From positions 348,068,001-348,132,000 of the forward strand of contig OZ024740.1 in the NCBI GenBank assembly GCA_964016885.1: DNA of 64,000 bases. Direction: 5' to 3'. This document shows positions 8,374-62,284 of this stretch, one piece after another. The position numbers and the translations under genes were made by a program. Source of the DNA: Eledone cirrhosa. Its lineage: Eukaryota. Below the pieces are notes generated by a model that had not been told where the DNA came from, ran no database searches, and saw nothing but the letters and a program-made list of their open reading frames with translations. Positions within the stretch are counted from its first letter, which is position 1. The number at the start of each line of letters is the position of its first letter.

Positions 8374-10980
<2,607 letters not shown>

Positions 10981-11284
10981 AAATATGTATTAAAAACAAA
11001 TAACGAAACGAAATTAAATTTCGTTTCGTTTGTAACTCACTTTTGTATGACTGACGCTTAAACAATTAAGTTAAAAATGTACATCCACATATGTATACTG
11101 AAATACTAGTATGCATATGAATACACACACGTATACATATGTAGATGTACCGAGTTTTTCACTGGTCACTTTACTGTGAGTGTCCAGCTATTCTGTATGT
11201 AAACACACAGACAAACCGGTTTTTAGAGTCATACTGGTTTTTGAGGAAACACCTTTCCTCTATTCTCCAGAAAGCCAGATAAGG

Positions 11285-11329
11285 AATATTGAACTAGTTT
11301 CGTTGTTGTTACAACTCATCAGCAATATT
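11285..11329 (-). ncRNA. Hammerhead ribozyme, family A
   Basis: aatattg CTGATGA gttgt aaca acaac GAAA ctag TT caatatt. Confidence 0.9.
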
Positions 11330-11750
11330 TACCTATCTTCCGGCCTTTCTAGAGAATCGTAAAAGCACATATCGTTATATGCTTTTTCTATGAAAATTAG
11401 TAGTGGGCAGACTAATTTGCATAGAGCGTGAGTACGTACCGGTTCAACGGAGACGATAAAAACAAATAACGAAACGAAATTAAATTTCGTTTCGTTTGTA
11501 ACTCACTTTTGTATGACTGACGCTTAAACAATTAAGTTAAAAATGTACATCCACATATGTATACTGAAATACTAGTATGCATATGAATACACACACGTAT
11601 ACATATGTAGATGTACCGAGTTTTTCACTGGTCACTTTACTGTGAGTGTCCAGCTATTCTGTATGTAAACACACAGACAAACCGGTTTTTAGAGTCATAC
11701 TGGTTTTTGAGGAAACACCTTTCCTCTATTCTCCAGAAAGCCAGATAAGG

Positions 11751-11795
11751 AATATTGAACTAGTTTCGTTGTTGTTACAACTCATCAGCAATATT
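11751..11795 (-). ncRNA. Hammerhead ribozyme, family A
   Basis: Identical motif, +466. Confidence 0.9.
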
Positions 11796-12012
11796 TACCT
11801 ATCTTCCGGCCTTTCTAGAGAATCGTAAAAGCACATATCGTTATATGCTTTTTATATGAACATTAGTAGTGGGCAGACTAATTTGCATAGAGCGTGAGTA
11901 CGTACCGGTTCAACGGAGACGATAAAAACAAATAACGAAACGAAATTAAATTTCGTTTCGTTTGTAACTCACTTTTGTATGACTGACGCTTAAACAATTA
12001 GGAAGATAGGTA

Positions 12013-12057
12013 AATATTGCTGATGAGTTGTAACAACAACGAAACTAGTTCAATATT
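12013..12057 (+). ncRNA. Hammerhead ribozyme, family A
   Basis: Identical motif on the plus strand. Confidence 0.9.
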
Positions 12058-12383
12058 CCTTATCTGGCTTTCTGGAGAATAGAGGAAAGGTGTTTCCTCA
12101 AAAACCAGTATGACTCTAAAAACCGGTTTGTCTGTGTGTTTACATACAGAATAGCTGGACACTCACAGTAAAGTGACCAGTGAAAAACTCGGTACATCTA
12201 CATATGTATACGCGTGTGTATTCATATGCATACTAGTATTTCAGTATACATATGTGGATGTACATTTTTAACTTAATTGTTTAAGCGTCAGTCATACAAA
12301 AGTGAGTTACAAACGAAACGAAATTTAATTTCGTTTCGTTATTTGTTTTTATCGTCTCCGTTGAACCGGTACGTACTCACGCT

Positions 12384-12420
12384 CTATGCAAATTAGTCTG
12401 CCCACTACTAATTTTCATAG
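12384..12420 (+). promoter_or_regulatory. Inverted octamer pair upstream of hammerhead (family A; one per unit)
   Basis: CTATGCAAATTAG tctgcccacta CTAATTTTCATAG; ATGCAAAT at 12386, 100 nt before the core at 12486. Confidence 0.5.
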
Positions 12421-12478
12421 AAAAAGCATATAACGATATGTGCTTTTACGATTCTCTAGAAAGGCCGGAAGATAGGTA

Positions 12479-12523
12479 AATATTGCTGATGAGTTGTAAC
12501 AACAACGAAACTAGTTCAATATT
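12479..12523 (+). ncRNA. Hammerhead ribozyme, family A
   Basis: Identical motif. Confidence 0.9.
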
Positions 12524-12942
12524 CCTTATCTGGCTTTCTGGAGAATAGAGGAAAGGTGTTTCCTCAAAAACCAGTATGACTCTAAAAACCGGTTTGTCTG
12601 TGTTTACATACAGAATAGCTGGACACTCACAGTAAAGTGACCAGTGAAAAACTCGGTACATCTACATATGTATACGTGTGTGTATTCATATGCATACTAG
12701 TATTTCAGTATACATTTGTGGATGTACATTTTTAACTTAATTGTTTAAGCGTCAGTCATACAAAAGTGAGTTACAAACGAAACGAAATTTAATTTCGTTT
12801 CGTTATTTGTTTTTATCGTCTCCGTTGAACCGGTACGTACTCACGCTCTATGCAAATTAGTCTGCCCACTACTAATTTTCATAGAAAAAGCATATAACGA
12901 TATGTGCTTTTACGATTCTCTAGAAAGGCCGGAAGATAGGTA

Positions 12943-12987
12943 AATATTGCTGATGAGTTGTAACAACAACGAAACTAGTTCAATATT
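12943..12987 (+). ncRNA. Hammerhead ribozyme, family A
   Basis: Identical motif. Confidence 0.9.
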
Positions 12988-13956
12988 CCTTATCTGGCTT
13001 TCTGGAGAATAGAGGAAAGGTGTTTCCTCAAAAACCAGTATGACTCTAAAAACCGGTTTGTCTGTGTGTTTACATACAGAATAGCTGGACACTCACAGTA
13101 AAGTGACCAGTGAAAAACTCGGTACATCTACATATGTATACGTGTGTGTATTCATATGCATACTAGTATTTCAGTATACATATGTGGATGTACATTTTTA
13201 ACTTAATTGTTTAAATATGTATTATTATCTATAAAAGGCAGATTTTTGTGTCTGTATGTGTTTCAATTTTATACATTTACACAATTCCAAAAATATTGAA
13301 TGAATAATTAAGCAGAATGTTTACTAATATTCTAACTTGGGTCATGGGCAAACTTATTGGGTAAAAAATGCCATAATTACGGAAAAATCGATTTATTTCA
13401 ACAATCGATGATTTCTCCTCTCTCATATGATATACGTTTCCTATATCTACTCCCTTCATCACCTCCCCTTAAAATTGCTACCTTCTCTTATAAGTGTTTG
13501 TGAAAAAGAGAAACATTGAAAAAAAACATATACACACATATATGTGGGTGCATACACACACATATATGTTGGTATGGTTACGATTGACGTCATAGAAACA
13601 GGAACGCGGGAATTTCAATCAATCAACGCATACACAGTTTGTTTTAGCTCCATTTCGAAGCTGACTTTCATTTACTAAACTGTAAGTTTTTCAATCGGCC
13701 TTACACTTTCAAACTATATTTTTCTGTATAAGTAACTTTAACCCTTTATTTTCGACATAAAAATACACACATACATACAAATACCTGTAAATTTTTTTGG
13801 GGGGCATTTTTACATTCAATTATCAGCCTTATATTTTCAAAGTCAATTTTTATGTTGAAGTAACATACATACATACATACATACATACATACATACATAC
13901 ATACATACATACATACATACATACATACATACATACATACATACATACATACATAC

Positions 13957-14560
13957 ATGGTGGCTGCCAACTCGTTTTCGAGTACGGCCACTACTTTATA
14001 TCCATGTAAGAGAACTCTTACCGATACGCTTAACGAGTGTGACGTTTTAGTCCAGCCAGCGACTTGAAAACTCTGGTACAAACAGTGTGACAATTATTGA
14101 CACATAGTGCTGGGCTCATGTTACCATATGACGACAAGTGTAGAGAGATATCCAGATATAAAGCAATGCCTGTGCCGTGAAGCTTTTATAGTGAGTAAAG
14201 GCACTGCACAAAGCCAGTCCCACTCTCTTAACCAAGATGATATTTACCAAAAAGAAGTACAAGTCAACATCATTGGATACCATCAGGGTTGCAGGTGTTA
14301 TATCAGAGTTTTCCTTCTCCTAGAATTCTGCCTTGACAAAAGCTAAGGGGTCATCTCTCCTGGTGATTTTGGATGGCCATTGACTCTTAAGAGCTCCTTT
14401 GGCCTTTGACAGGTTTTTTTTTTGTCCTGCAGGATGTCCAAAGTCACCCTCCTCACCAAGAAACCTTGGTGGGGTAGCCAGTTTAGTCGCCAACGACCCG
14501 ACCATGAGACAGTTTGTACTGGGATACATGTTACCAGTAGCACCAACTGGTGACCTGACA
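13957..14560 (-). mobile_element. ~600-bp RTE-derived non-autonomous retroelement nested in the Helitron
   Basis: Reverse complement of the copies at 39043-39605 and 44349-44960; flanked by (CATA)n. Confidence 0.75.
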
Positions 14561-14600
14561 TACATACATACATACATACATACATACATACATACATACA

Positions 14601-14632
<32 letters not shown>

Positions 14633-15099
14633 CATACATACATATACACACATACATACAAATACCTGTCACTTAATTTACACACACATCGGCCTTACAC
14701 TTTCATACACACATACATACATATACACACATACATACAAATACCTGTCACTTAATTTACACACACATCGGCCTTACACTTTCAAACTAAATTTTTCTGT
14801 AGAAGTAACTTTAACCCCTTCTTTTCGACATAAAAATACACACATACATACAAATACCTTAACATTTTTTTGGGGGGTCTTTCTTATCAATCTTTTTACA
14901 TTCAATTATCAGCCTTATACTTTCAAAGTCAATTTTTATGTTGAAGTAACTTTCACCCTTTATTTTTCGATACCCATTTACTTACTAACATTTGTATCAC
15001 AACAACAATAACAATATTCATAAACAGACAGTAGAATTTCAAAGTCAATTTTTCTGTAGAAGTAACTTTCACCCTTTCTTTTGGACATAAAATACCACC

Positions 15100-15810
15100 T
15101 AAAAAGAGAAGTCACCTCAGTCGACATACCGCGTCAGCAGTGGCGCAAAAGGCTACTATAGCAAACGAGTCCTCTGAGGAAAATGCTTCAAGACTTTCAC
15201 AGACAGCCTTACGTTCAGCAGAATGTAGAGCCGCTGAAAGTTACCAACAGCGCACCGCACGCCTAGCCAAAATGGCTTCATACCAGGCTTCTTCCAGGGC
15301 TTCAGAGAGCCGGGAACAAAGGTGGAAGCGCCTGGCTAGAAACGATGCGACTAATGCTGCTTCCAGGTCTTTGGAACGTTTAAAACAACGGACCGCTCGC
15401 CTTCCTACGAACGCTGCGGCTATGACTACTTCCATGTCCTCTGAAGATGCAGACGGGCGGTCCATTAGCATTGCAAATGTTGCTTCTGCTATTGCTGCCA
15501 GACCTTCCCACCAACCACACGACCAATGTTCTACGTTCAAGCGTAACAGTCGACGGCGAGAAGCTGCACGCGATGTGACGAGCCCCAACACAGCCCTTAC
15601 TGGCACCTACGGGCTTTCAAGTATGAGCAAAACGTTAATTACTCGATGCGCTCTGACATAAATATAGGCGAGATGCGCTTCAATTGCCAATTCTGCAATG
15701 CTACAAAGTGGGCTGGGGAGCCACCTGCAATGTGCTGCTTAAACGGTAAGGTCACCTTGCCCCCTCTTCTGGAACCGCCAGAGCCTTTGAAGGAACTACT
15801 GACTGGTTAT
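15100..15810 (+). pseudogene. Helitron RepHel N-terminus (E/R-rich repeats + Cys cluster)
   Basis: ESSEENASRL/ESREQRWKRL repeats; frameshifted IGEMRFNCQFCNATKWAGEPPAMCCLNGKVTLPPLLEPPEPLKELL. Confidence 0.8.
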
Positions 15811-15849
15811 ACCTCAAGGTGAAAAAAAACAAACCCTGATCCCCCAATA

Positions 15850-17116
15850 AAAAACGCTCCTGGGGTACCGGAAAAACTTTTGTAACGAATTTGATTCTCG
15901 CTAAGATTCGTCAGGAGAAAAAAGTTGCGTTGTCCGTTGCATCGTCCGGGATCGCTGCTACTTTGCTGCCGGGAGGCAGGACAGCACATTCAACCTTTAA
16001 ACTCCCTTTGGATTTAGTAAAAACTGAGACACCAACATGCAATATCAGCAAGAGTTCACACAAAGCTCTGGTACTCAAAAGATGTTGCCTCATTGTTTGG
16101 GATGAGTGCACAATGGCACACAAGGGTTCCCTTGAGGAATCGGACAGGGCCCGGAAAGACATTAGGGATTCTACGGCTCCTATGGGTGGCGTAACCCTTC
16201 TGCTATCAGGGGATTTTCGGAAAACGCTGCCTGTCATCCCCAAATGGACAAGAGCTGATGAAGTGCGTGCCTGTCTTAAGTCGTCCATGTTGTGGCTCCA
16301 GGTGAATAGTTTGTACCTGAGCACAAATATGCGTGCTCATTTGCATGGTGACAACATGTCTGCAGCACAGAACATTTTAGCACTTGGTGAGGGCAAGATC
16401 CCTGAGGATGACAAGGGCGGCATAGCAATCGACACCCTGTGCAACATTGTGAGCAGCCCTTCTGACCTTTGGGAAGCAGTTTTTCCTAATGTCTCATCTA
16501 ACTTTAAAAACCTCCATTGGCTCAGCGAAAAAGCCATCCTTGCTACGAAAAATACCATGGTTAATTTTATTAACGAGCAGCTGATTGAGAAGATTCCCGG
16601 TAAAGAGCACATCTTCAAATCAGACCCCGACGATATCGTTAATTATCCGGTTGAGTTATTAAATCTCCTTGAGCCCCCAGGGCTCCCACCTCACATTATT
16701 AAGCTTAGTGTTGGCTGTCCCATTATGCTAATAAGGAACTTGCGTCAACCAAAGCAGTGCAACGGTACTCGCATGGTCGTCAAGTCACTGACACCCACTT
16801 GATTGAGGCCACCATTGTAACGGGGTGCGGAAGAGGAGAGAATGTTTTCATTCCAAGGCTGAACCTTTTCCCCTCGGCGTCAGATATCCCGTTCGATTTC
16901 CGGCGATCCCAATTCCCGGTGAGACCATTTTTTGCCATGTCCATTAACAAGTCACAAGGGCAAACATTGTCGGTGGCGGGCATCCATTTAGGGGAGCGAT
17001 GCTTCTCCCATGGCCAACTTTATGTTGCCTGTTCCCGCGCAGGGAGCAGGAATGGACTTTTTGCTTACTCTCCTCAAGGGATGACACGCAATATCGTCTA
17101 CAAAGAGGTGCTATAG
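15850..17116 (+). pseudogene. Helitron PIF1-like SF1B helicase domain, frameshifted
   Basis: APG-GTGKTF, VASSGIAATLL, IVWDECTM, SGDFRKTLPV, LIRNL..CNGTR, AMSINKSQGQTL, SHGQLYVACSR; frameshift near 16800. Confidence 0.93.
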
Positions 17117-17486: not shown

Positions 17487-17547
17487 CATATATATAGAGA
17501 GAGAGAGAGATAAATATACACGGGTGTGTATGATTGTGTATAGAAGA

Positions 17548-17889
17548 TTATATTAATAAAAGGAATTCTAACTTTGTCAGATTTACTCGTTTTATTTACA
17601 ATCCTTTAACATTTATAATGGTATTAGAATGAAATAGTATGGTAGAATATTAAATACTAAGTGTTAATTGAACAAGTACTTTCATGCTTTCGCAATCTTC
17701 AGGTTCATATTGTGTGGTGACAGTCAAGTTTGCAATTTTCACAGTTGAAAATTGCAAACTTGACTGTCAATTAACACTTAACATTTAATATTCTACCATA
17801 TTATTTCATTCTAATACCATTATACATTTTAAAGGATTGTAAATAAAACGAGTAAATCATACAAAGTTGGAATTCCTTTTATTAATATA
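17548..17889. mobile_element. Fold-back hammerhead element
   Basis: ~120-bp inverted arms (17548-17670 / 17768-17889) plus a 24-bp inner hairpin at 17718-17769. Confidence 0.75.
17669..17707 (-). ncRNA. Minimal type I hammerhead ribozyme
   Basis: Minus: tgaac CTGAAGA ttgc gaaa gcat GAAA gtac TT gttca; palindromic AAGTACTT. Confidence 0.8.
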
Positions 17890-17975
17890 TATATATACAT
17901 TTATATATATATATATATAATCTATATATATATATACATTTACATATATATATATTTTATATATATATTTATACA

Positions 17976-18095
17976 TCTATATATATAAAACTGAGGATGT
18001 CTGTATGTGTGTGTGTGTATCTGTGAGTTTGAATCCCTAAATCTCGAGAAGTACCCAATCGATTTTTTCAGACTCTACATGTGTATTACTTATGT
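17976..18095 (+). mobile_element. Non-autonomous Helitron-like 5' end fragment
   Basis: A|TCTATATATATAAAACTGAGGATGTCTG; matches ~7640-7760 on minus. Confidence 0.55.
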
Positions 18096-21275: not shown

Positions 21276-21306
<31 letters not shown>

Positions 21307-21613
21307 TGAAACAAAATGAAAACGAAATTTCATTTCTCACTCTTAGTATGGCACTTACTTAAATGTAAGTATGCATGTATACGTACATACATATATGTAT
21401 ACAGACGTACAGTAGCATGCACATATATATATATATATATATACATATATACATACATATGCATACAGGTACACATACATATATGCACGTATCAGTTTAG
21501 CGGCGCTTATTATAAAGTCGCTTTGTTCGTTTGTAAACAAACTGAACAGCCTGAATTTATGCCATACGGTGTTAAGGCAACCACGTCACCTTTTTGTTCA
21601 ACACTGACACAGG

Positions 21614-21658
21614 AACGATGTACTAGTTTCAAGCTTGTTAGCTATCATCAGCACCGTT
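21614..21658 (-). ncRNA. Hammerhead ribozyme, family B
   Basis: aacggtg CTGATGA tagct aaca agctt GAAA ctag TA catcgtt. Confidence 0.88.
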
Positions 21659-21704
21659 TACCCATCTGCCAGATAGTTGAACGTTCGAAAGTATATACTT
21701 TCCT

Positions 21705-21741
21705 TATGAAAATTAACGGCTGAGCAGCCTAATTTGCATAT
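21705..21741 (-). promoter_or_regulatory. Inverted octamer pair, family B
   Basis: Minus: ATGCAAATTAGGCTG ct CAGCCgtTAATTTTCAT; 88 nt before the core. Confidence 0.5.
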
Positions 21742-22087
21742 TGAGTGAGTTAAATCGGTCAGGCATACCGAAAACGATAAATTGAAACAAAATGAAAACG
21801 AAATTTCATTTCTCACTCTTAGTATGGCACTTACTTAAATGTAAGTATGCATGTATACGTACATACATATATGTATACAGACGTACAGTAGCATGCACAT
21901 ATATATATATATATATACATATATACATACATATGCATACAGGTACACATACATATATGCACGTATCAGTTTAGCGGCGCTTATTATAAAGTCGCTTTGT
22001 TCGTTTGTAAACAAACTGAACAGCCTGAATTTATGCCATACGGTGTTAAGGCAACCACGTCACCTTTTTGTTCAACACTGACACAGG

Positions 22088-22132
22088 AACGATGTACTAG
22101 TTTCAAGCTTGTTAGCTATCATCAGCACCGTT
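22088..22132 (-). ncRNA. Hammerhead ribozyme, family B
   Basis: Identical motif, +474. Confidence 0.88.
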
Positions 22133-24577
22133 TACCCATCTGCCAGATAGTTGAACGTTCGAAAGTATATACTTTCCTTATAAAAATTAACGGCTGAGCA
22201 GCCTAATTTGCATATTGAGTGAGTTAAATCGGTCAGGCATACCGAAAACGATAAATTGAAACAAAATGAAAACGAAATTTCATTTCTCTCGCTAAACTGA
22301 TACGTGCATATATGTATGTGTACCTGTATGCATATGTATGTATATATGTATATATATATATATATATGTGCATGCTACTGTACGTCTGTATACATATATG
22401 TATGTACGTATACATGCATACTTATATATATATACTGTTTGCGATCAAATATGATTTGGCTATGCTGGGTATTGGGTTGTTGTGAGAGTGTTAATTTCTA
22501 GAAGGTGTAGAATAAGTAGCTAGAAGCAAATCTAGGCATGTGAGAGGAAATAGAAGCAGTGTGAGAAAATGGAGGAGGAAACGTGAGATTGTCATAAACT
22601 ACCGGTCGCCAACCGGTGGTTCGCGGACTACAGGTGATCCGCAGAAAAAACTTGATGTATTTATCTTTTTTTTTTTAATTCATATTATTGGTCTTTGAGA
22701 TCCGGACATTTGACGACCGCTGACATAAAGGGTTGTATTCAAAAGTTTGAAAAGTTTCTAGATTTAAATCCATAGAAAAATGAGAACACTCATCGATAGA
22801 ACAACTGTTAAAACAGCCAAATGCTGTCAAAGAGATGTGAAGTTCGAAATATAAAAGTACATATACTTTTCTGACTGCGTGCGCATACATGCGTTTAAGA
22901 ATGTGTGTAAATGTATTAGCTGTTTTAAGTACAGTGTTATCTTTATGACCTGAAAGGAAATGAATAGTCATTCCTCTTCTTTTCGATGAAATGTATTCGA
23001 AAGTCTTACTGGTATCAGTTTTGTTGATATAGTGGAAAACATTACACCATAGTTCTTGGCTGTATATTGTTTCTTTTTATGTTGTTTTTGTTCGTATTAT
23101 AGCACCCGAGTAGAATCTTCGTATTTGACTTGTGGATATGTACAATATATAAATAGTAGAAAAAGAAACAACATTTCTCTTTAGAAATAAATACATTCTC
23201 TGTCCATTGATGGGAGAGATTTGATTCATTGATTTTCCGTGCTCGGAATTTTGAAAGAAATGTTGATTAACTTGCAGTAAATCTTACAATAAATATTTAC
23301 CTAACTGTTCGATAGAACAGATTTCAATCAGATATTTTCGTTTAGCAATTACTTTTTTAAATATTTCTTCATTTTCTTTATTACCTACATTTCAATTCGT
23401 ACTGTGTATATGCTAGAATGATTTCTATACCGTGTCGTTTTTGTTACACGAAAGAATAAATCTATAGTTATCTATCTGCCACGATCAAAACATTTTGAAT
23501 GTGTTGTGCTATCATTTATATGGCTAATATTTCTCCTTTCTACTTTGTTTTCATCACATTTCAACTATGAATTCTTGCTAATTAATCTACGCTGAATATT
23601 TATTTATTTCATGCAATTTCTACTTGTGTTTATTGTACAGATAACAATTTCTCCTACATTAACTCCTATTTCAAAGAGTACACTTTACAAAATTTATGAT
23701 AGCCTAGGGATGATTTATATATTTCCAATATTTTGATGATCAGTTCAGCAATATATGTTTATATATACAATTAATGCTACGATCAAATTAAACTTTCAGC
23801 TTTCTCTGATCAAAATTAAAATTTAATTGACAGCGTTATATTGAAATTAAGTATAAAAGCACAACTACAATATTTTATTGGGTATTGAGTTTCATGCATT
23901 CGATTAATCTCTTTTAATATCTGCGTATTCTATAAATATATCTAACACATAATAAAAACATTTTTTCCAAATAATATCTAATTGAAAATATCATGAAGTG
24001 TGACCTAAAACCATGAATGATAACAATGGCCATTTATCTAACTGGCAAACACTCACTTAGCATAACTAAAGAGAAAGCTTCTACGCAGTTACACGATCTC
24101 CAAGAAACACCGACCAAATATTCCTCATACAGATTACATTACATAATATATGAAGAACACACATTAGTTAATGTGATCGTAGATAAACTATACCCAGAAT
24201 ATGACGGTATTCACAGCAGAAATAATTTTGATCATAGTTCTCTGCGCTAAACGTTAAACTTTCACAAACAACAAACTTTCCCACTGAAAGCATCCTGAAC
24301 GTAAAACTTCGACTTAGTAGAATGGTGTACAATGTATTTATTAAAGATCATGGTTCAGATATCATGATGATATCTGATATATTAAATCTGAATTGAGGCA
24401 TTACGATAATATTACCTTCCTTGTTCTTACAACGCAATTACACTAATTCAATATATATGTATATGTGTGTGTGAGAGTGAGTGTGACTGTGTCTATGTGT
24501 GTGCATGTGAGTGAGTGTGAGTGTGTCTATGTGTGTGTGTGCGTGTGTGTGTGCGTGCGCGCGCGCGCGCGCGCGTG

Positions 24578-38087: not shown

Positions 38088-38427
38088 AAGTATGTGTGCA
38101 AGTATGTATGTTATTGTATGTGTGGATTTGTATATTTTGATTCGCAAGTGTACTCGAGCATAGGTTTCATATCTATACAGGTATATAAGCAGTTAATACA
38201 TGCAGAATGTTTGGAAAGTTTTACATCTTTGCAGTTCTATTAACTGATTTTACTCCTATCTAGTCGAGTCCTTTTTGGTTCTGCAAAGCCCAGCTTCTGA
38301 ATATTTGTACTGAAGCAGTTAATAATATATCCCTGAGACACAATATTCACAGATATAAATCTGAAAGCATAGTCATGGTGGAGTATTTGTATGTATATAT
38401 GCATGTATCTATGTATGTATGTATGTG

Positions 38428-38711
38428 TGTCAGGTCACCAGTTGGTTCTACTGGTAACATGTATCCCAGTACAACCTGTCCCATGGTCGGGTCATTAGCG
38501 ACTAAACTGGTAACCCCACCAAGGTTTCTTGGTGAGGAGGGTGACTTTGGACATCCTGCAAGACTAAAAACAAAACCTGTCAAAGGGCAAAGGAGATCTT
38601 AAGAGTCATTGGCCATCCAAAATCACCGGGAGAGATGACCCCTTAGCCTTTGTCAAGGCAGAATTCTAGGAGAAGGAAAACTGATATAACACCTGCAACC
38701 CTGATGGTATC
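38428..38711 (+). mobile_element. RTE-derived element, 5' half
   Basis: Matches the first ~285 nt of 44349-44960. Confidence 0.75.
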
Positions 38712-39042: not shown

Positions 39043-39605
39043 TGTCTCATGGTCGGGTCGTTGGCGACTAAACTACCAACCCCACCAAGGTTTCTTGGTG
39101 AGGAGGGTGACTTTGGACATCCTACAGGACTAAAAACAAAACCTGTCAAAGGGCAAAGGAGCTCTTAAGAGTCAATGGCCATCCAAAATCACCGGGAGAG
39201 ATGACCGCCTTAGCCTTTGTCAAGGCAGAATTCTAGGAGAAGGAAAACTCTGATATAACACCTGCAACCCTGATGGTATCCAATGATGTTGACTTGTTCT
39301 CTTCTTTTTGGTAAATATCATCTTGGTTAAGAGAGTGGGACTGGCTTTGTGCAGTGCCTTTGCTCACTATAAAAGCTTCACGGCACAGGCATTGCTTTAT
39401 ATCTGGAGATCTCTCTGCACTTGTCGTCACATGGTACCATGGGCCCAGCACTGTGTCAATAATTGTCACAAGTGTAGTGTTTGTACCAGAGTTTACAAGT
39501 CGCTGGCTGGACTAAAAAGTCACACTCGTTCAGCGCATCGGTAAGGGTTCTCCTACATGGATATAAAGTAGTGGCCGTACTCGAAAACGAGTTGGCAGCC
39601 ACCAT
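39043..39605 (+). mobile_element. RTE-derived non-autonomous element
   Basis: CTAGGAGAAGGAAAACTCTGA (RTE 5'UTR-like); [24 protein letters not shown]2H2-like ORF end; CTCG-AAAA-CGAG hairpin; (TGTA)n tail. Confidence 0.75.
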
Positions 39606-39881
39606 GTATGTATGTATGTATGTATGTATAAATTCATGCCGTTCAAGGCGACGTTAGTGTACCATAATGTGTATATATGTGTTACATTCAACGTCCATTT
39701 CACATTATAATTTCATATTTACATCTTTTATTGTATTTGACTACATTGGACAAATATTTCTAAAAGTTATTTCCAATTAACTCATATGCTATTTTTTATC
39801 TTTTGTGATGGAGTTCCTATAGATTAGTACATTGTTATACTCCATTTTGGAGATCCATACTATTGTAAACTGCAATATCAA

Positions 39882-43677: not shown

Positions 43678-43716
43678 TATATATTTATATATATATATAT
43701 ATATATAAATATATAT

Positions 43717-44333
43717 GTTGGTGCTACTGGTAACAGTTGGTGCTACTGGTAACATGTATCCCAGTACAACCTGTCTCATGGTCGGGTCGTTGGCGACTAA
43801 ACTGGCAACCCCACCAAGGTTTCTTGGTGAGGAGGGTGACTTTGGACATCCTGCAGGACTAAAAACAAAACCTGTCAAAGGGCAAGGGAGCTCTTAAGAC
43901 TCAATAGCCATCCAAAATCACCGGGAGAGATGACCCCTTAGCCTTTGTCAAGGCAGAATTCTAGGAGAAGGAAAACTCTGATATAACACCTGCAACCCTG
44001 ATGGTATCCAATGATGTTGACTTGTTCTTCTTTTTGGTAAATATCATCTTGGTTAAGAGAGTGGGACTGGCTTTGTGCAGTGCCTTTGCTCACTATAAAA
44101 GCTTCACAGCACAGGCATTGCTTTATATCTGGAGATCTCTCTGCACTTGTCATCACATGGTACCATGGGCCCTGCACTATGTGTCAATAATGGTCACAAG
44201 TGTAGTCTTTGTACCAGAGTTTTCAAGTCGCTAGCTGGACTAAAAAGTCACATTCGTTCAGCGCATCGGTAGGGATTCTCCTACATGGATATAAAGTAGT
44301 GGCCGTACTCGAAAACGAGTTGGCAGCCACCAT
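43717..44333 (+). mobile_element. RTE-derived non-autonomous element
   Basis: Near-identical copy; 5' 19-nt duplication of GTTGGTGCTACTGGTAACA. Confidence 0.78.
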
Positions 44334-44348
44334 GTATATATATATGTG

Positions 44349-44960
44349 TGTCAGGTCACCTAGTTGGTGCTACTGGTAACATGTATCCCAGTACAACCTG
44401 TCCCATTGTCGGGTCGTTGGTGACTAAACTGGCAACCCCACCAAGGTTTCTTGGTGAGGAGGGTGACTTTGGACATCCTGCAGGACTAAAAACAAAACCT
44501 GTCAAAGGGCAAAGGAGCTCTTAAGAGTCAATGGCCATCCAAAATCACCGGGAGAGACGACCTCTTAGCCTTTGTCAAGGCAGAATTCTAGGAGAAGGAA
44601 AACTCTGATATAACACCTGCAACCCTGATGGTATCCAATGATGTTGACTTGTTCTTCTTTTTGGTAAATATCATCTTCGTTAAGAGAGTGGGACTGGCTT
44701 TGTGCAGTGCCTTTACTCACTATAAAAGCTTCACGGCACAGGCATTGCTTTATATCTGGAGACCTCTCTGCACTTGTCGTCACAAGGTAACATGGGCCCA
44801 GCACTATGTGTCAATAATTGTCACAAGTGTAGTGTTTGTACCAGAGTTTTCAAGTCACTGGCTGGACTAAAAAGTCACACTCATTCAGCGCATCGGTAGG
44901 GGTTCTCCTACATGGATATAAAGTAGTGGCCGTACTCGAAAACGAGTTGGCAGCCACCAT
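44349..44960 (+). mobile_element. RTE-derived non-autonomous element, full length
   Basis: Tandem neighbour of the previous copy. Confidence 0.78.
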
Positions 44961-44973
44961 ATGTATATATATA

Positions 44974-45212
<239 letters not shown>

Positions 45213-49611: not shown

Positions 49612-54754
<5,143 letters not shown>

Positions 54755-54807
54755 ATAAAATATTAAACAAATAATGAATAAACAATTCCTTATATTAAAC
54801 AAAAAAA

Positions 54808-54962
54808 TTCATTATTTAACGATCGTTTCTAGGGTATATATGTGTTATAATTGGTATGCATATTCAACAGATCTATGTACAAAATTATACAAAATTATAC
54901 AAATTATCAAGATTAAATATACATACCTAACACATATATACGCCGTCTTCAGAAATAATGAA
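54808..54962 (-). ncRNA. Hammerhead with very long stem II (mirror copy)
   Basis: Reverse complement of 61545-61699. Confidence 0.75.
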
Positions 54963-55787
54963 GTATATTTATTGATAATAACAACAATTCAAAATATCAG
55001 TTCAAAATTGACCAATGAAAACACAAAGGGTTAAAAGCAGTTCGGTGTGTGTATATACATGTAAAATCCTTACACATATTTTACAAAAATGTGTGTATAA
55101 TTTGTATACGCATACTAAAAAGATGGATGCAAACACAAAATTTCAAGGTTAATATCTCTGTAAGCTTAATGCGCTGATAAGATGCGCATTGATACTTATG
55201 GAGTCAAGCATATAAATATATTTTTTCATACTCACACATATCAGTATAAACACACATACATGCGCGTATATGCATAAATATACACATAACCACGAACATA
55301 CAAACACACACACTCCCCCACTCACATTTATATATGTGGATATAAAATCATAAGCACATAGAAATTAAATCACTCACATAAAACACTGGCACACACATTT
55401 CAAGATCAAGATACAGAAATTAGGTGGGAGGGGGGGGAGGGGTCAGTATTCAATTGTCTGAGCAGACTGCCTAATATAAATGTATCTATAAATTAAGAAA
55501 AATAAAAAAATAAAACAATAAAATATAATAACTATAATATAATATATATACACATACAGATATATAAACACACATACATACATGTACGCACACATAGAGA
55601 TATTTACGCATACACACATACACACATACATATACAGTCATACACACACATACACTTACACGAACATACACATACACATATAAAAAGATATATATATACA
55701 CACACACACACGCGCAACACATACACACATACACATATATATAAAAAAAAATAGATAATAAAGATATATATCCACATATATATACAT

Positions 55788-55836
<49 letters not shown>

Positions 55837-55927
55837 CATATACATATACATACACATACATCTAAATATACATACACATACATACACACATACATGTACA
55901 TACATGTACATACATATACGCACATCG

Positions 55928-55975
<48 letters not shown>

Positions 55976-56318
55976 TCACATAGACATATAGATACATACA
56001 CACACAACTTACATACACACGTATATATATATATATATATAGATGTACCTTCATACATAGAATTAGATATATAATCATACATACATATGCACCTACTTAT
56101 ACTCATATATATAAATACATACGCTTCCATAAATGTGTATATACATAAAAAACAATACAACCTCACCAAACTCAGACATACAAATAAAGATAATAATAAA
56201 AAATAATAATAAAAAGGCATATGTATATACATACACACACGCATTAATAGAGATATATATATATATATACACATACATACACATATATATATACATACAC
56301 ACACACATATACACACAC

Positions 56319-56365
<47 letters not shown>

Positions 56366-56371
56366 TAGACT

Positions 56372-56408
<37 letters not shown>

Positions 56409-56803
56409 ATATATATCCACACACACATACCACCATAAAAACACATACAAACACCCACATGTATATATATATATATATATATATCCATATACACACACGT
56501 ACATATATATACATACATATACATAGATATATATATATACACACACACATAAAAAACAGACATGCACATATATATATATATATATATATTTTATTACTCT
56601 TATATATACACATATTATATATACATACACAACCTCACTTATACACATATACACATAAGTTATATTATAATAATAAAGAATAATATACATATATATATAT
56701 ACATATACATATATATATATATATATATATACATACATACATACACATACATACATACACATAAATATATACATACATAAATACACACATACTAATAAAG
56801 ACA

Positions 56804-57880
56804 TATAATGAAGCTCTAGATAGAAGTGGCCACAAAAATAGATTAGAGTATATACCTTCTACTAAAAATACTGAAAGCATACATCATAATATTACCAACA
56901 AACACCAAATGAAAAGTACACACCTAAATGCCACCCACAATATACCCCAAAATACTAAATCTTCTAATATAAAGTATAGTAACCCTCAAAAAACTACTCA
57001 TCATACAACTATAATAAATATTAATAATAAAACTCCTAATAAAAAAGATAAAACACCTAAATCTACAAATATAACTAAAAATAGTTGTGGTGAGATCATT
57101 AACATTAATCCTCCTAGTAAAAATCATGATACAACCTATAAAAATAATAAAAATAATAAACAACATAGAAACCGTAATAGACGAGTTACTTGGTATAATG
57201 CTCCTTTTAATTTACAAGTTAAGGATAATATTGCTAAAAAATTTTTTTATATCCTTGAGAAAAACTTCCCGCCAAACCACAAATACCATCAAATCTTAAA
57301 TAGGTCTACAGTTAAATTCTCATACTCTACAACAAATAACATAAAACAAAATATAAGTGCATATAATGCATATAAATGTAAGAAAACCATAAGTATACCA
57401 CCAGTACATCAAATTAACAATAATATCTCCTCAAATACAGAATTAACGAAAGGATGTAACTGTAGAAACAAAACAAACTGCCCATTAAAAGGGAATTGTC
57501 TTGTTAACAACATAGTCTATAAATGTAATGTTAAAACTAAAGATTCTATTTGCTCATATATAGGAGCTACCTCTAACAATTTTAAGACAAGGTTTAATAC
57601 CCACAAGCATAGTTTTAAAAATGCCGCACTGGCTAATACAACATCTCTAGCAGAAAAAATCAATAGTTATAAAAATAAGAATATAAAATATGATTTGACC
57701 TGGAGTGTGCTCAAAAGAGCCACCCCTTATCAAAATAATAGAAAAGAATGTAGATTATGTTCCCAAGAACTATTTGAAATAATGAAGTCTAAGGATATCT
57801 TATTAAATAAACGACAGGAATTAATTATATCGTGTAATCATAAACTAAAAAAAACATTTAAATATTATAAACCTAATTAA
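56804..57880 (+). CDS. PLE polyprotein C-terminus: RT thumb end, Cys-rich linker, GIY-YIG endonuclease (5'-truncated)
   Basis: In-frame YNEALDRSGH from 56804; RRVTWYNAPF, NRSTVKFSYS, CNCRNKTNCPLKGNC, IVYKC..YIGATSNNFKTRFNTH, CRLC, LLNKRQEL; no internal stops. Confidence 0.88.
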   Translation, partial: YNEALDRSGHKNRLEYIPSTKNTESIHHNITNKHQMKSTHLNATHNIPQNTKSSNIKYSNPQKTTHHTTIININNKTPNKKDKTPKSTNITKNSCGEIININPPSKNHDTTYKNNKNNKQHRNRNRRVTWYNAPFNLQVKDNIAKKFFYILEKNFPPNHKYHQILNRSTVKFSYSTTNNIKQNISAYNAYKCKKTISIPPVHQINNNISSNTELTKGCNCRNKTNCPLKGNCLVNNIVYKCNVKTKDSICSYIGATSNNFKTRFNTHKHSFKNAALANTTSLAEKINSYKNKNIKYDLTWSVLKRATPYQNNRKECRLCSQELFEIMKSKDILLNKRQELIISCNHKLKKTFKYYKPN

Positions 57881-59650: not shown

Positions 59651-60091
59651 GATATATATATATATATATATATATAGGTGTCTATGTGTGAATATATGTC
59701 TTTATTAGTATGTGTGTATTTATGTATGTATATATTTATGTGTATGTATGTATGTGTATGTATGTATGTATATATATATATATATATATATGTATATGTA
59801 TATATATATATGTATATTATTCTTTATTATTATAATATAACTTATGTGTATATGTGTATAAGTGAGGTTGTGTATGTATATATAATATGTGTATATATAA
59901 GAGTAATAAAATATATATATATATATATATATGTGCATGTCTGTTTTTTATGTGTGTGTGTATATATATATATGTATGTATATGTATGTATATATATGTA
60001 CGTGTGTGTATATGGATATATATATATATATATATATACATGTGGGTGTTTGTATGTGTTTTTATGGTGGTATGTGTGTGTGGATATATAT

Positions 60092-60130
<39 letters not shown>

Positions 60131-60136
60131 AGTCTA

Positions 60137-60179
<43 letters not shown>

Positions 60180-60522
60180 GTGTGTGTATATGTGTGTGTG
60201 TATGTATATATATATGTGTATGTATGTGTATATATATATATATATATCTATTAATGCGTGTGTGTATGTATATACATATGCCTTTTTATTATTATTTTTT
60301 ATTATTATCTTTATTTGTATGTCTGAGTTTGGTGAGGTTGTATTGTTTTTTATGTATATACACATTTATGGAAGCGTATGTATTTATATATATGAGTATA
60401 AGTAGGTGCATATGTATGTATGATTATATATCTAATTCTATGTATGAAGGTACATCTATATATATATATATATATACGTGTGTATGTAAGTTGTGTGTGT
60501 ATGTATCTATATGTCTATGTGA

Positions 60523-60570
<48 letters not shown>

Positions 60571-60661
60571 CGATGTGCGTATATGTATGTACATGTATGT
60601 ACATGTATGTGTGTATGTATGTGTATGTATATTTAGATGTATGTGTATGTATATGTATATG

Positions 60662-60718
<57 letters not shown>

Positions 60719-61544
60719 ATGTATATATATGTGGATATATATCTTTATTATCTATTTTTTTTTTATATATATGTGTATGTGTGTATGTGTTGCGCGTGTG
60801 TGTGTGTGTATATATATATCTTTTTATATGTGTATGTGTATGTTCGTGTAAGTGTATGTGTGTGTATGACTGTATATGTATGTGTGTATGTGTGTATGCG
60901 TAAATATCTCTATGTGTGCGTACATGTATGTATGTGTGTTTATATATCTGTATGTGTATATATATTATATTATAGTTATTATATTTTATTGTTTTATTTT
61001 TTTATTTTTCTTAATTTATAGATACATTTATATTAGGCAGTCTGCTCAGACAATTGAATACTGACCCCTCCCCCCCCTCCCACCTAATTTCTGTATCTTG
61101 ATCTTGAAATGTGTGTGCCAGTGTTTTATGTGAGTGATTTAATTTCTATGTGCTTATGATTTTATATCCACATATATAAATGTGAGTGGGGGAGTGTGTG
61201 TGTTTGTATGTTCGTGGTTATGTGTATATTTATGCATATACGCGCATGTATGTGTGATTATACTGATATGTGTGAGTATGAAAAAATATATTTATATGCT
61301 TGACTCCATAAGTATCAATGCGCATCTTATCAGCGCATTAAGCTTACAGAGATATTAACCTTGAAATTTTGTGTTTGCATCCATCTTTTTAGTATGCGTA
61401 TACAAATTATACACACATTTTTGTAAAATATGTGTAAGGATTTTACATGTATATACACACACCGAACTGCTTTTAACCCTTTGTGTTTTCATTGGTCAAT
61501 TTTGAACTGATATTTTGAATTGTTGTTATTATCAATAAATATAC

Positions 61545-61699
61545 TTCATTATTTCTGAAGACGGCGTATATATGTGTTAGGTATGTATATTTAATCTTGA
61601 TAATTTGTATAATTTTGTATAATTTTGTACATAGATCTGTTGAATATGCATACCAATTATAACACATATATACCCTAGAAACGATCGTTAAATAATGAA
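61545..61699 (+). ncRNA. Hammerhead with very long stem II
   Basis: ttcattattt CTGAAGA cggc gtatatatgtgtta..ggtatg....catacc..taacacatatatac ccta GAAA cgatcg TT aaataatgaa; 10-bp stem I, palindromic AACGATCGTT. Confidence 0.78.
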
Positions 61700-61883
61700 T
61701 TTTTTTGTTTAATATAAGGAATTGTTTATTCATTATTTGTTTAATATTTTATCTTGACTCTGTATACCGTTTGTCTTTCACCGAAAGTGGATTTTCATTG
61801 CATCTCTTCTTTCCATGATATCCGGAATACATTGAGTTCTTCATACGGATTGGACACTACCGTAAACTCTTGGTAGATTTATC

Positions 61884-61939
<56 letters not shown>

Positions 61940-61978
61940 CATACATATATACATATATATACATATATATATATATAT

Positions 61979-62053
<75 letters not shown>

Positions 62054-62074
62054 TATACATATATATATATATAT

Positions 62075-62181
<107 letters not shown>

Positions 62182-62284
62182 TATGAAGTAATTCCATCGG
62201 AAAAGTCCAGGAAAAAAGAGTGCTCTATGTAAGCAACAGAGCTTAATTATTATTATTATGTAATAAACAACATAAGGCAATTAT

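Follow-up and report, generated by a model that had tools for sequence, protein, structure and literature searches.

A 64-kb stretch of the Eledone cirrhosa genome (the window) carries at positions 21307–22424, flanked by TA repeats, a young insertion made of two head-to-head arms. Its 474-nt unit is non-coding and contains a type I hammerhead motif. We refer to this family as B and to its homologue in the same window as A. The tailed arm of B (21307–22288, minus strand, 982 nt) consists of units of 476 and 474 nt followed by 32 nt. The two units, in tandem at 21307–22256, agree at 473 of 476 columns (99%), which confirms the 474–476-nt array of an earlier note on this DNA. The tail-less inverted arm (22290–22424, plus strand, 135 nt) corresponds to unit positions 281–415, lies 5′ to 5′ with the tailed arm, and terminates against a short TA run. 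Because the hammerhead reads on the minus strand, the RNA-sense 3′ end of B is at 21307 and faces the long left (TA)n run. The tail itself (21307–21365, minus strand, 59 nt; family mode 58 nt) is present on one arm end only. The duplicated target copies (21294–21308 and 22423–22437, plus strand) share 15 identical letters and each overlap an arm end by 2 nt; the left copy is a TA run then CTG, and the true length of the duplication is blurred by the TA run.

The hammerhead core CTGATGA..GAAACTAGT occurs on the minus strand once per B unit. The motif in unit 1 (21614–21658, minus strand) has stem I AACGGTG/CATCGTT, the core CTGATGA, a stem II with a basal U.U, GAAA, and a palindromic ACTAGT, and the motif alone predicts cleavage after 21621 (GUA); unit 2 carries an identical motif (22088–22132, minus strand) with a predicted cut after 22095. 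Four further hairpins are predicted on the same strand: a terminal hairpin within the tail (21314–21335), a small TACTTA/TAAGTA hairpin (21356–21371) with the tail-less end sites at the two edges of its loop (unit 415 and 421), a hairpin with TATGCAAATTAG (21705–21740), which lies in the next unit, 38–73 nt downstream of the usual tailed end, and a long TA-rich hairpin in the second unit (21855–21966, unit 291–402). In family A the counterpart of the small hairpin is formed by CTTAA/TTAAG and the ends lie at 393 and 398; the TATGCAAATTAG hairpin of A is letter-for-letter identical to that of B. What had been described as an octamer pair is indeed common to A and B, but the predicted fold makes the pair two arms of one hairpin. 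No Pfam match was found for the longest frame tested (stop to stop, 21310–21720), and no tRNA genes were found in the window; B fits a non-LTR retrozyme, a class with no LTR, PBS, or PPT, in having no protein coding by the Pfam test of this frame. The unit has no Rfam match at gathering score, with only Hammerhead_HH9 below it (18.5 bits, E 0.16), and all Rfam miRNA matches to the TA hairpin also fall below that score.

Several other features share the window. Fragments that we label Helitron-like occupy 14559–17116 and include STPR repeats (PF21107, 15035–15658) and a PIF1 helicase (PF05970 and PF21530, 15840–16799). A 2.5-kb inverted repeat (54330–56807 and 59693–62185, 95%) surrounds a 371-codon ORF (56765–57880) that has no Pfam match and, over 230 aa, is 45% identical to an L190 frame (labels of this form denote sampled genomic loci); a frame in L313 has the same C terminus, is longer, and appears RT-like by eye. 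This inverted repeat probably represents an insertion of the Penelope-like element (PLE) type that was truncated. Other families contribute further matches to the hammerhead core, several of them in inverted pairs, at 201, 1407, 2964/2970, 7946, 17702, 18097, 26524/26629, 27935, 45518, and 48138/49364. A dispersed repeat of ~630 nt, once a tandem pair and often beside (ACAT)n, recurs at 13865–14577, 38388–38711, 39043–39633, and 43703–44974, and the core scan found no hammerhead core in it.

Family A has a 466-nt unit and is arranged as a tailed arm (10991–12000, minus strand, 1010 nt) and a longer tail-less arm (12001–13214, plus strand, 1214 nt), with a 13-nt target match at 10980–10992 and 13212–13224. 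Global alignment of A with B gave 304 identical columns out of 518 (score 170 versus –49 ± 14 for 300 dinucleotide shuffles, z = 15.8), while alignment on the reverse strand scored at background level. About 15 predicted helices follow an order common to both families (by our own pairing of the helix lists), bearing out the claim that B is a homologue of A with the same order of modules. Fold energies are far below those of shuffled sequences (40 shuffles each), with z of –11.7 for A and –8.3 and –6.7 for B.

The earlier note had stated that stems I and II were fully replaced between the families with pairing kept. Stem I retains 4 of its 7 pairs and has 3 altered on both sides, so that "fully replaced" overstates the difference; of the 5 pairs in stem II, 3 are altered on both sides, 1 is the same in both families, and the basal G-C is replaced in B by a U.U mismatch. 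The AACA loop of stem II is identical in the two families, and the motif predicts a cut triplet of GUA in B and of GUU or GUC in A. Over the ribozyme region as a whole, 10 of 19 pairs differ between A and B on both sides. Across 17 variants of this region, hand-picked from 99 distinct ones, 93.8% of cells pair, and both-sided changes occupy 55 cells compared with 22 ± 3 in shuffles and 1–10 when partners are slid. The compensating changes come mostly from the single A/B split, so independent events are few; compensation is also seen within A (stem II) and within B (stem I). These results support the proposal that RNA structure in the ribozyme region is under selection. For B as a circle, the lowest-energy fold predicted does not give the ribozyme core its hammerhead pairing, a point against the reading preferred below.

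Both families are abundant. The pattern CTGATGA-N8-24-GAAACTAGT has 23,722 matches in the 3.0-Gb genome (control 7), and our exclusion pattern leaves only 172 of these without one of the main stem II forms of A and B. A B-type core pattern that also allows CTGACGA has 26,569 matches (control 0), a count that takes in shorter-spacing variants of about 420–430 nt. A and B are dispersed and multicopy with duplicated targets of >4 bp, as are retrozymes.

To map arm ends, we tiled 61 B loci and 41 A loci. These were the best-scoring copies (scored candidates: 40 of 327 and 39 of 40), pattern matches early on C1, three loci picked from end-pattern matches, and one found within a GIY-YIG locus; the set is therefore top-scoring or early-C1 rather than random. 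Arm ends cluster at two sites in each family: in B at 421 and at 479, the latter 5 nt beyond the unit boundary, with minor sites at 474 and 415, and in A at 466 and 398/393. The tailed end in both families is TTTA before TCGT, and the tail-less ends border the loop of the small conserved predicted hairpin. The window copy of B falls 5 nt short of the usual site at its tailed end and 6 nt short at its inverted-arm end, and the TTGTTT previously named as the shared arm end is not the family's usual end. The offset noted between the arms was right (59 nt in window B, 58 nt as the family mode, and 67–68 nt in A). Its association with a long arm was not: the tailed arm exceeds its partner in 26 of 40 insertions for B and in 12 of 26 for A (together 38 of 66), and in window array A it is the shorter one (1010 versus 1214 nt), so arm length is not the rule. 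Exact genome-wide patterns placed 2,325 tailed and 749 tail-less ends beside (TA)n (reversed-pattern controls 0 and 32), two counts that cannot be compared with each other because the patterns differ in stringency. Arm ends at the ribozyme cut site beside TA gave 3 exact matches, and an internal TTA control gave 0. Termini tabulated in both ways, as the earlier note had suggested, are therefore clustered at two sites and not random.

The two kinds of end are almost always combined. Of 73 two-armed insertions (71 called automatically, L049 and L161 by eye), 66 have one tailed and one tail-less end, one is tail-less twice (L103), none is tailed twice, and six have one end elsewhere or unresolved (L023, L147, L150, L082, L101, and L164). 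The tailed end of L148 was read past a secondary insertion, and the tail-less end of L237 was taken from the overlapping L236. Without the three loci chosen for pairing, 63 of 64 are tailed plus tail-less; 62 of 63 corresponds to p = 1e–17 against a coin. On C1 up to 147 Mb, a tailed end facing outward lies no more than 5 kb from 15 of the 27 tail-less ends listed (chance 0.002 each), and no tailed-tailed or tail-less pairs occur within that distance among the ends listed. Target duplications were examined in 64 insertions; 37 were pure TA and uninformative, and several of the other 27 were long TA matches. Where the flank is not pure TA, duplications of 12–13 nt recur (for example L017, L039, L105, L165, L242, and window A). 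Separately, another short repeat has inserted into the element's own internal TA hairpin at L148:2685–2982 and L023:~935.

Two alternative 3′ ends, with a tail on one of two inverted arms, are the signature of PLE insertions, a known geometry that the earlier note did not recognise in its description of these ends. A and B also show 5′ truncation, head-to-head inverted copies, and microsatellite targets. PLEs are described as forming inverted 5′-truncated copies with a 30–40 nt tail, often at one end, and a microsatellite bias (PMC8557442, PMC3846280). A PLE protein in vitro cleaves AT-rich DNA and extends both strands, starting at two internal RNA sites that bound the tail; downstream RNA is required and ribozyme cleavage is not (PMC11167929). 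PLE hammerheads have a palindromic stem III, dimer activity, and low cleavage in vitro (PMC4209133). Like EN+ PLEs (Penelope/Poseidon, Neptune, and Naiad; PMC8557442, PMC3846280, PMC11167929), A and B are 5′-truncated partial tandems with an adjacent inverted copy, a tail at one end only, microsatellite targets, and a hammerhead within the repeat; their duplicated targets can be likened to the 8–10 bp of rotifer PLE copies. Unlike EN+ PLEs, they have no ORF and the whole element is the repeat unit, and the pairing of tailed and tail-less ends, near-strict here, is only "optional" or "often" for those elements. Counting against copying by a PLE enzyme are the tail of 58–68 nt, compared with 30–40 nt published, and the one tail-less/tail-less insertion (L103).

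In other respects, A and B resemble metazoan non-LTR retrozymes: they consist of non-coding units in tandem, a single type I hammerhead in every unit (PMC7229834, bioRxiv 10.64898/2026.07.22.740005), have a GC content below 50%, are highly self-paired, have duplicated targets of >4 bp and tens of thousands of copies, and reside in a genome with PLEs. The basal U.U in stem II and the 2-pair stem III of B are also found in axolotl HHR_Amex2 (PMC7229834). The units of 466–476 nt compare with 170–400 nt for expressed retrozyme circles and 51–972 in the 2026 survey. Circles and cleavage have been shown for published retrozymes, while A and B are known here from sequence. We estimate a probability of roughly 0.85 that A and B are non-LTR retrozymes inserted as two head-to-head arms in TA repeats, likely copied by the RT and GIY-YIG of a PLE in trans. 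Observed for this reading are the anatomy, the two end sites, the tailed and tail-less arms, the TA targets, the ~12-nt duplications, and coding PLEs with the same footprint.

GIY-YIG (PF01541) has at least 150 scored matches in the genome, from 10,596 candidates; all five long frames scanned match RVT_1 and four match GIY-YIG (Pfam). Five of six coding families have the cysteine linker described for Neptune (PMC8557442), and on sequence features we tentatively apply that clade name. The L189 family encodes RT and GIY-YIG, carries a small hammerhead with a palindromic stem III (AGTACT) and a basal U.U, and ends beside TA at two sites about 55 nt apart; L309/L310, of this family, is one head-to-head insertion with one of each end type. 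The 3′ end of this coding family is also matched at 17496–17987 of the window. Between the L189 family and A/B we detected no shared sequence. Searches of GIY-YIG loci from six families (40 by BLAST, 60 by profile) found no coding element with A/B-like repeat ends, only separate A/B insertions, and ribozyme-core variants led to no coding family among the matches listed (100 of 172 and 100 of 301), which were mostly mutated B or A cores. The RT and GIY-YIG ORF of an autonomous PLE is lacking in A and B and present elsewhere in the genome. At L123:1011–1834, a family-A arm stands head to head with a 270-nt GIY-YIG end fragment (90% to L297), which may be a two-template insertion; the fragment stops after 270 nt without resuming within 8 kb, so the junction does not establish a chimeric insertion. 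Hammerhead-like motifs with TTGANAA for CTGANGA (a U3-A8 pair for C3-G8) were observed in coding GIY-YIG families, at L166:~1040 (minus strand) and upstream of the L186 ORF. Hammerheads with U3-A8 in place of C3-G8 can be active.

Published work bears on the source of the units. Cervera and de la Peña (2020, PMC7229834) described retrozyme circles and named PLEs as a candidate partner, and Li, Clavereau, and Pollet (2026, bioRxiv 10.64898/2026.07.22.740005) derived retrozymes as non-autonomous PLE derivatives from co-occurrence and pseudo-LTR homology, leaving the mechanism open. The class is therefore known, and PLE partnership has already been proposed from co-occurrence and homology. Xenopus retrozyme families have 21 PLE matches; for A and B, we found no pseudo-LTR sequence link among 60 GIY-YIG loci. 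A and B also resemble the putatively non-autonomous Chlamys elements, such as MRC1 (PMC8557442), which are non-coding PLE derivatives, multicopy and head-to-tail; those elements resemble autonomous partners at the 3′ end and mostly do not have canonical hammerheads, whereas A and B have a hammerhead and no partner among the GIY-YIG loci searched. Tails, head-to-head arms, and fixed starts, counted here, are not described in the accessible text of PMC7229834 or of the 2026 survey, and we found no description of tails on retrozyme insertions in titles and abstract openings, a search that mostly covered sources outside subscription journals. A route proposed in the 2026 survey would make the units orphan pseudo-LTR ends of an autonomous PLE, multiplied as a satellite by unequal crossing-over and inverted later. 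Repeated blocks of units in older arrays agree with it. We consider it improbable, and largely refuted as the main route, because the dispersed insertions run into the thousands and have fixed ends and duplicated targets of their own, because arms in the tiled loci consist of the unit only with no upstream coding (L123 being one ambiguous case), and because young arrays are identical across inverted arms.

The footprint also bears on which enzyme acts. Twin priming of the L1 type yields inverted truncated copies with duplicated targets (PMC2837659), and LINE-like RT fragments occur in the loci examined, so a LINE might have copied the units in a SINE-like manner. We allow this a very slim chance: the starts lie within the RNA, at two fixed positions and with no poly(A), the window has no tRNA gene, and the footprint matches PLEs of the same genome. 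Only 7 of 66 insertions (3.5 expected) have the inner end of the tailed arm close to the other start site, and single-molecule twin priming has no support beyond a few short tailed arms (L087 and L106). Tandem arrays and the PIF1 fragment in the window could likewise suggest a rolling-circle DNA element of the Helitron type, or an assembly artefact. Duplicated targets, fixed ends, and RNA-level covariation argue against both, and the unit occurs in independent sequencing runs (B units in four contig runs of unrecorded kind), making this explanation extremely unlikely.

Under the preferred PLE reading, the enzyme would nick both target strands about 12 nt apart, and each target 3′ end would prime first-strand synthesis within the RNA, the tailed site serving one of them and a site 58–68 nt upstream the other. 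Both cDNAs would pass the ribozyme cut site and cover anything from part of a unit to many units before their free ends were linked head to head. Being palindromic, stem III would permit dimer cutting between neighbouring units. The earlier note had expected one defined reverse-transcription start distinct from the cleavage site, on a circular or multimeric template; the clustered ends support a defined start, at two sites rather than one. As for the template, 106 of 132 arms cross the cut site, 53 of them at least twice, and only 4 of 142 inner arm ends lie within 10 nt of it (6.3 expected). Since arms span the cut site and inner ends do not pile up there, a cut linear monomer is disfavoured as the template. 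Near the tail region, inner ends number 42 of 142 (28 expected, p = 0.02 and 0.047), a weak excess in a region chosen after looking and given no weight here.

Whether the template was a circle or an uncut multimer is not separated by the unit variants, which are compatible with both. In 36 of 51 insertions, the partner arm is the nearest or tied-nearest sequence (strictly nearest in 24). L113, L114, and L155 are internally identical with private substitutions; L113 (9 units) and L114 (4 units) are identical over both arms and 7–11 substitutions from any other sampled array. Older A arrays (L100 and L238) are mixed with repeated blocks, units 3–7 of L100 recurring as 9–13, so part of the array length may stem from local duplication or an assembly error. 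We lean slightly toward a ligated circle, uncut at the ribozyme. The same PLE enzyme might instead copy an uncut linear multimer transcribed from a donor array, with no circle and a ribozyme that acts elsewhere or rarely, to which we give somewhat short of an even chance. Ribozyme cleavage is dispensable in vitro and it is mostly unprocessed RNA that serves as substrate there (PMC11167929), small PLE ribozymes are poor cleavers in vitro (PMC4209133), and identical units at three distant loci (L110, L111, and the window) are what a master array would give. Partial cutting of such a multimer, however, would pile inner ends at the cut site, where so few are found; L113 and L114 are internally identical yet private, although unsampled donors could account for private variants; and the ribozyme has been retained with compensating changes. 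A more specific proposal, which we put forward tentatively and at clearly worse than even odds, is that a Neptune-type PLE dimer holds a single ligated retrozyme circle and uses it as template at both ends of a break staggered by 12 nt, its subunits starting at the tailed site and at the conserved hairpin loop 58–68 nt upstream.

If this proposal is true, each two-armed insertion would document that a circular RNA had been reverse-transcribed in rolling-circle fashion. Comparison of A with B, which have no sequence-related coding partner, would then map a purely structural recognition domain, made up of the tail, two long-range helices, and the invariant downstream hairpin. To the partnership already proposed, the A and B copies add the evidence of a footprint: the PLE tail, near-strict end pairing, 12-nt duplicated targets, and a cut site unmarked at the ends. 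Two diverged families with the same fold thus provide a small natural substrate (about 470 nt) with predicted starts for the existing in vitro PLE assay, making testable both the origin of the tail and retrozyme circles as template.
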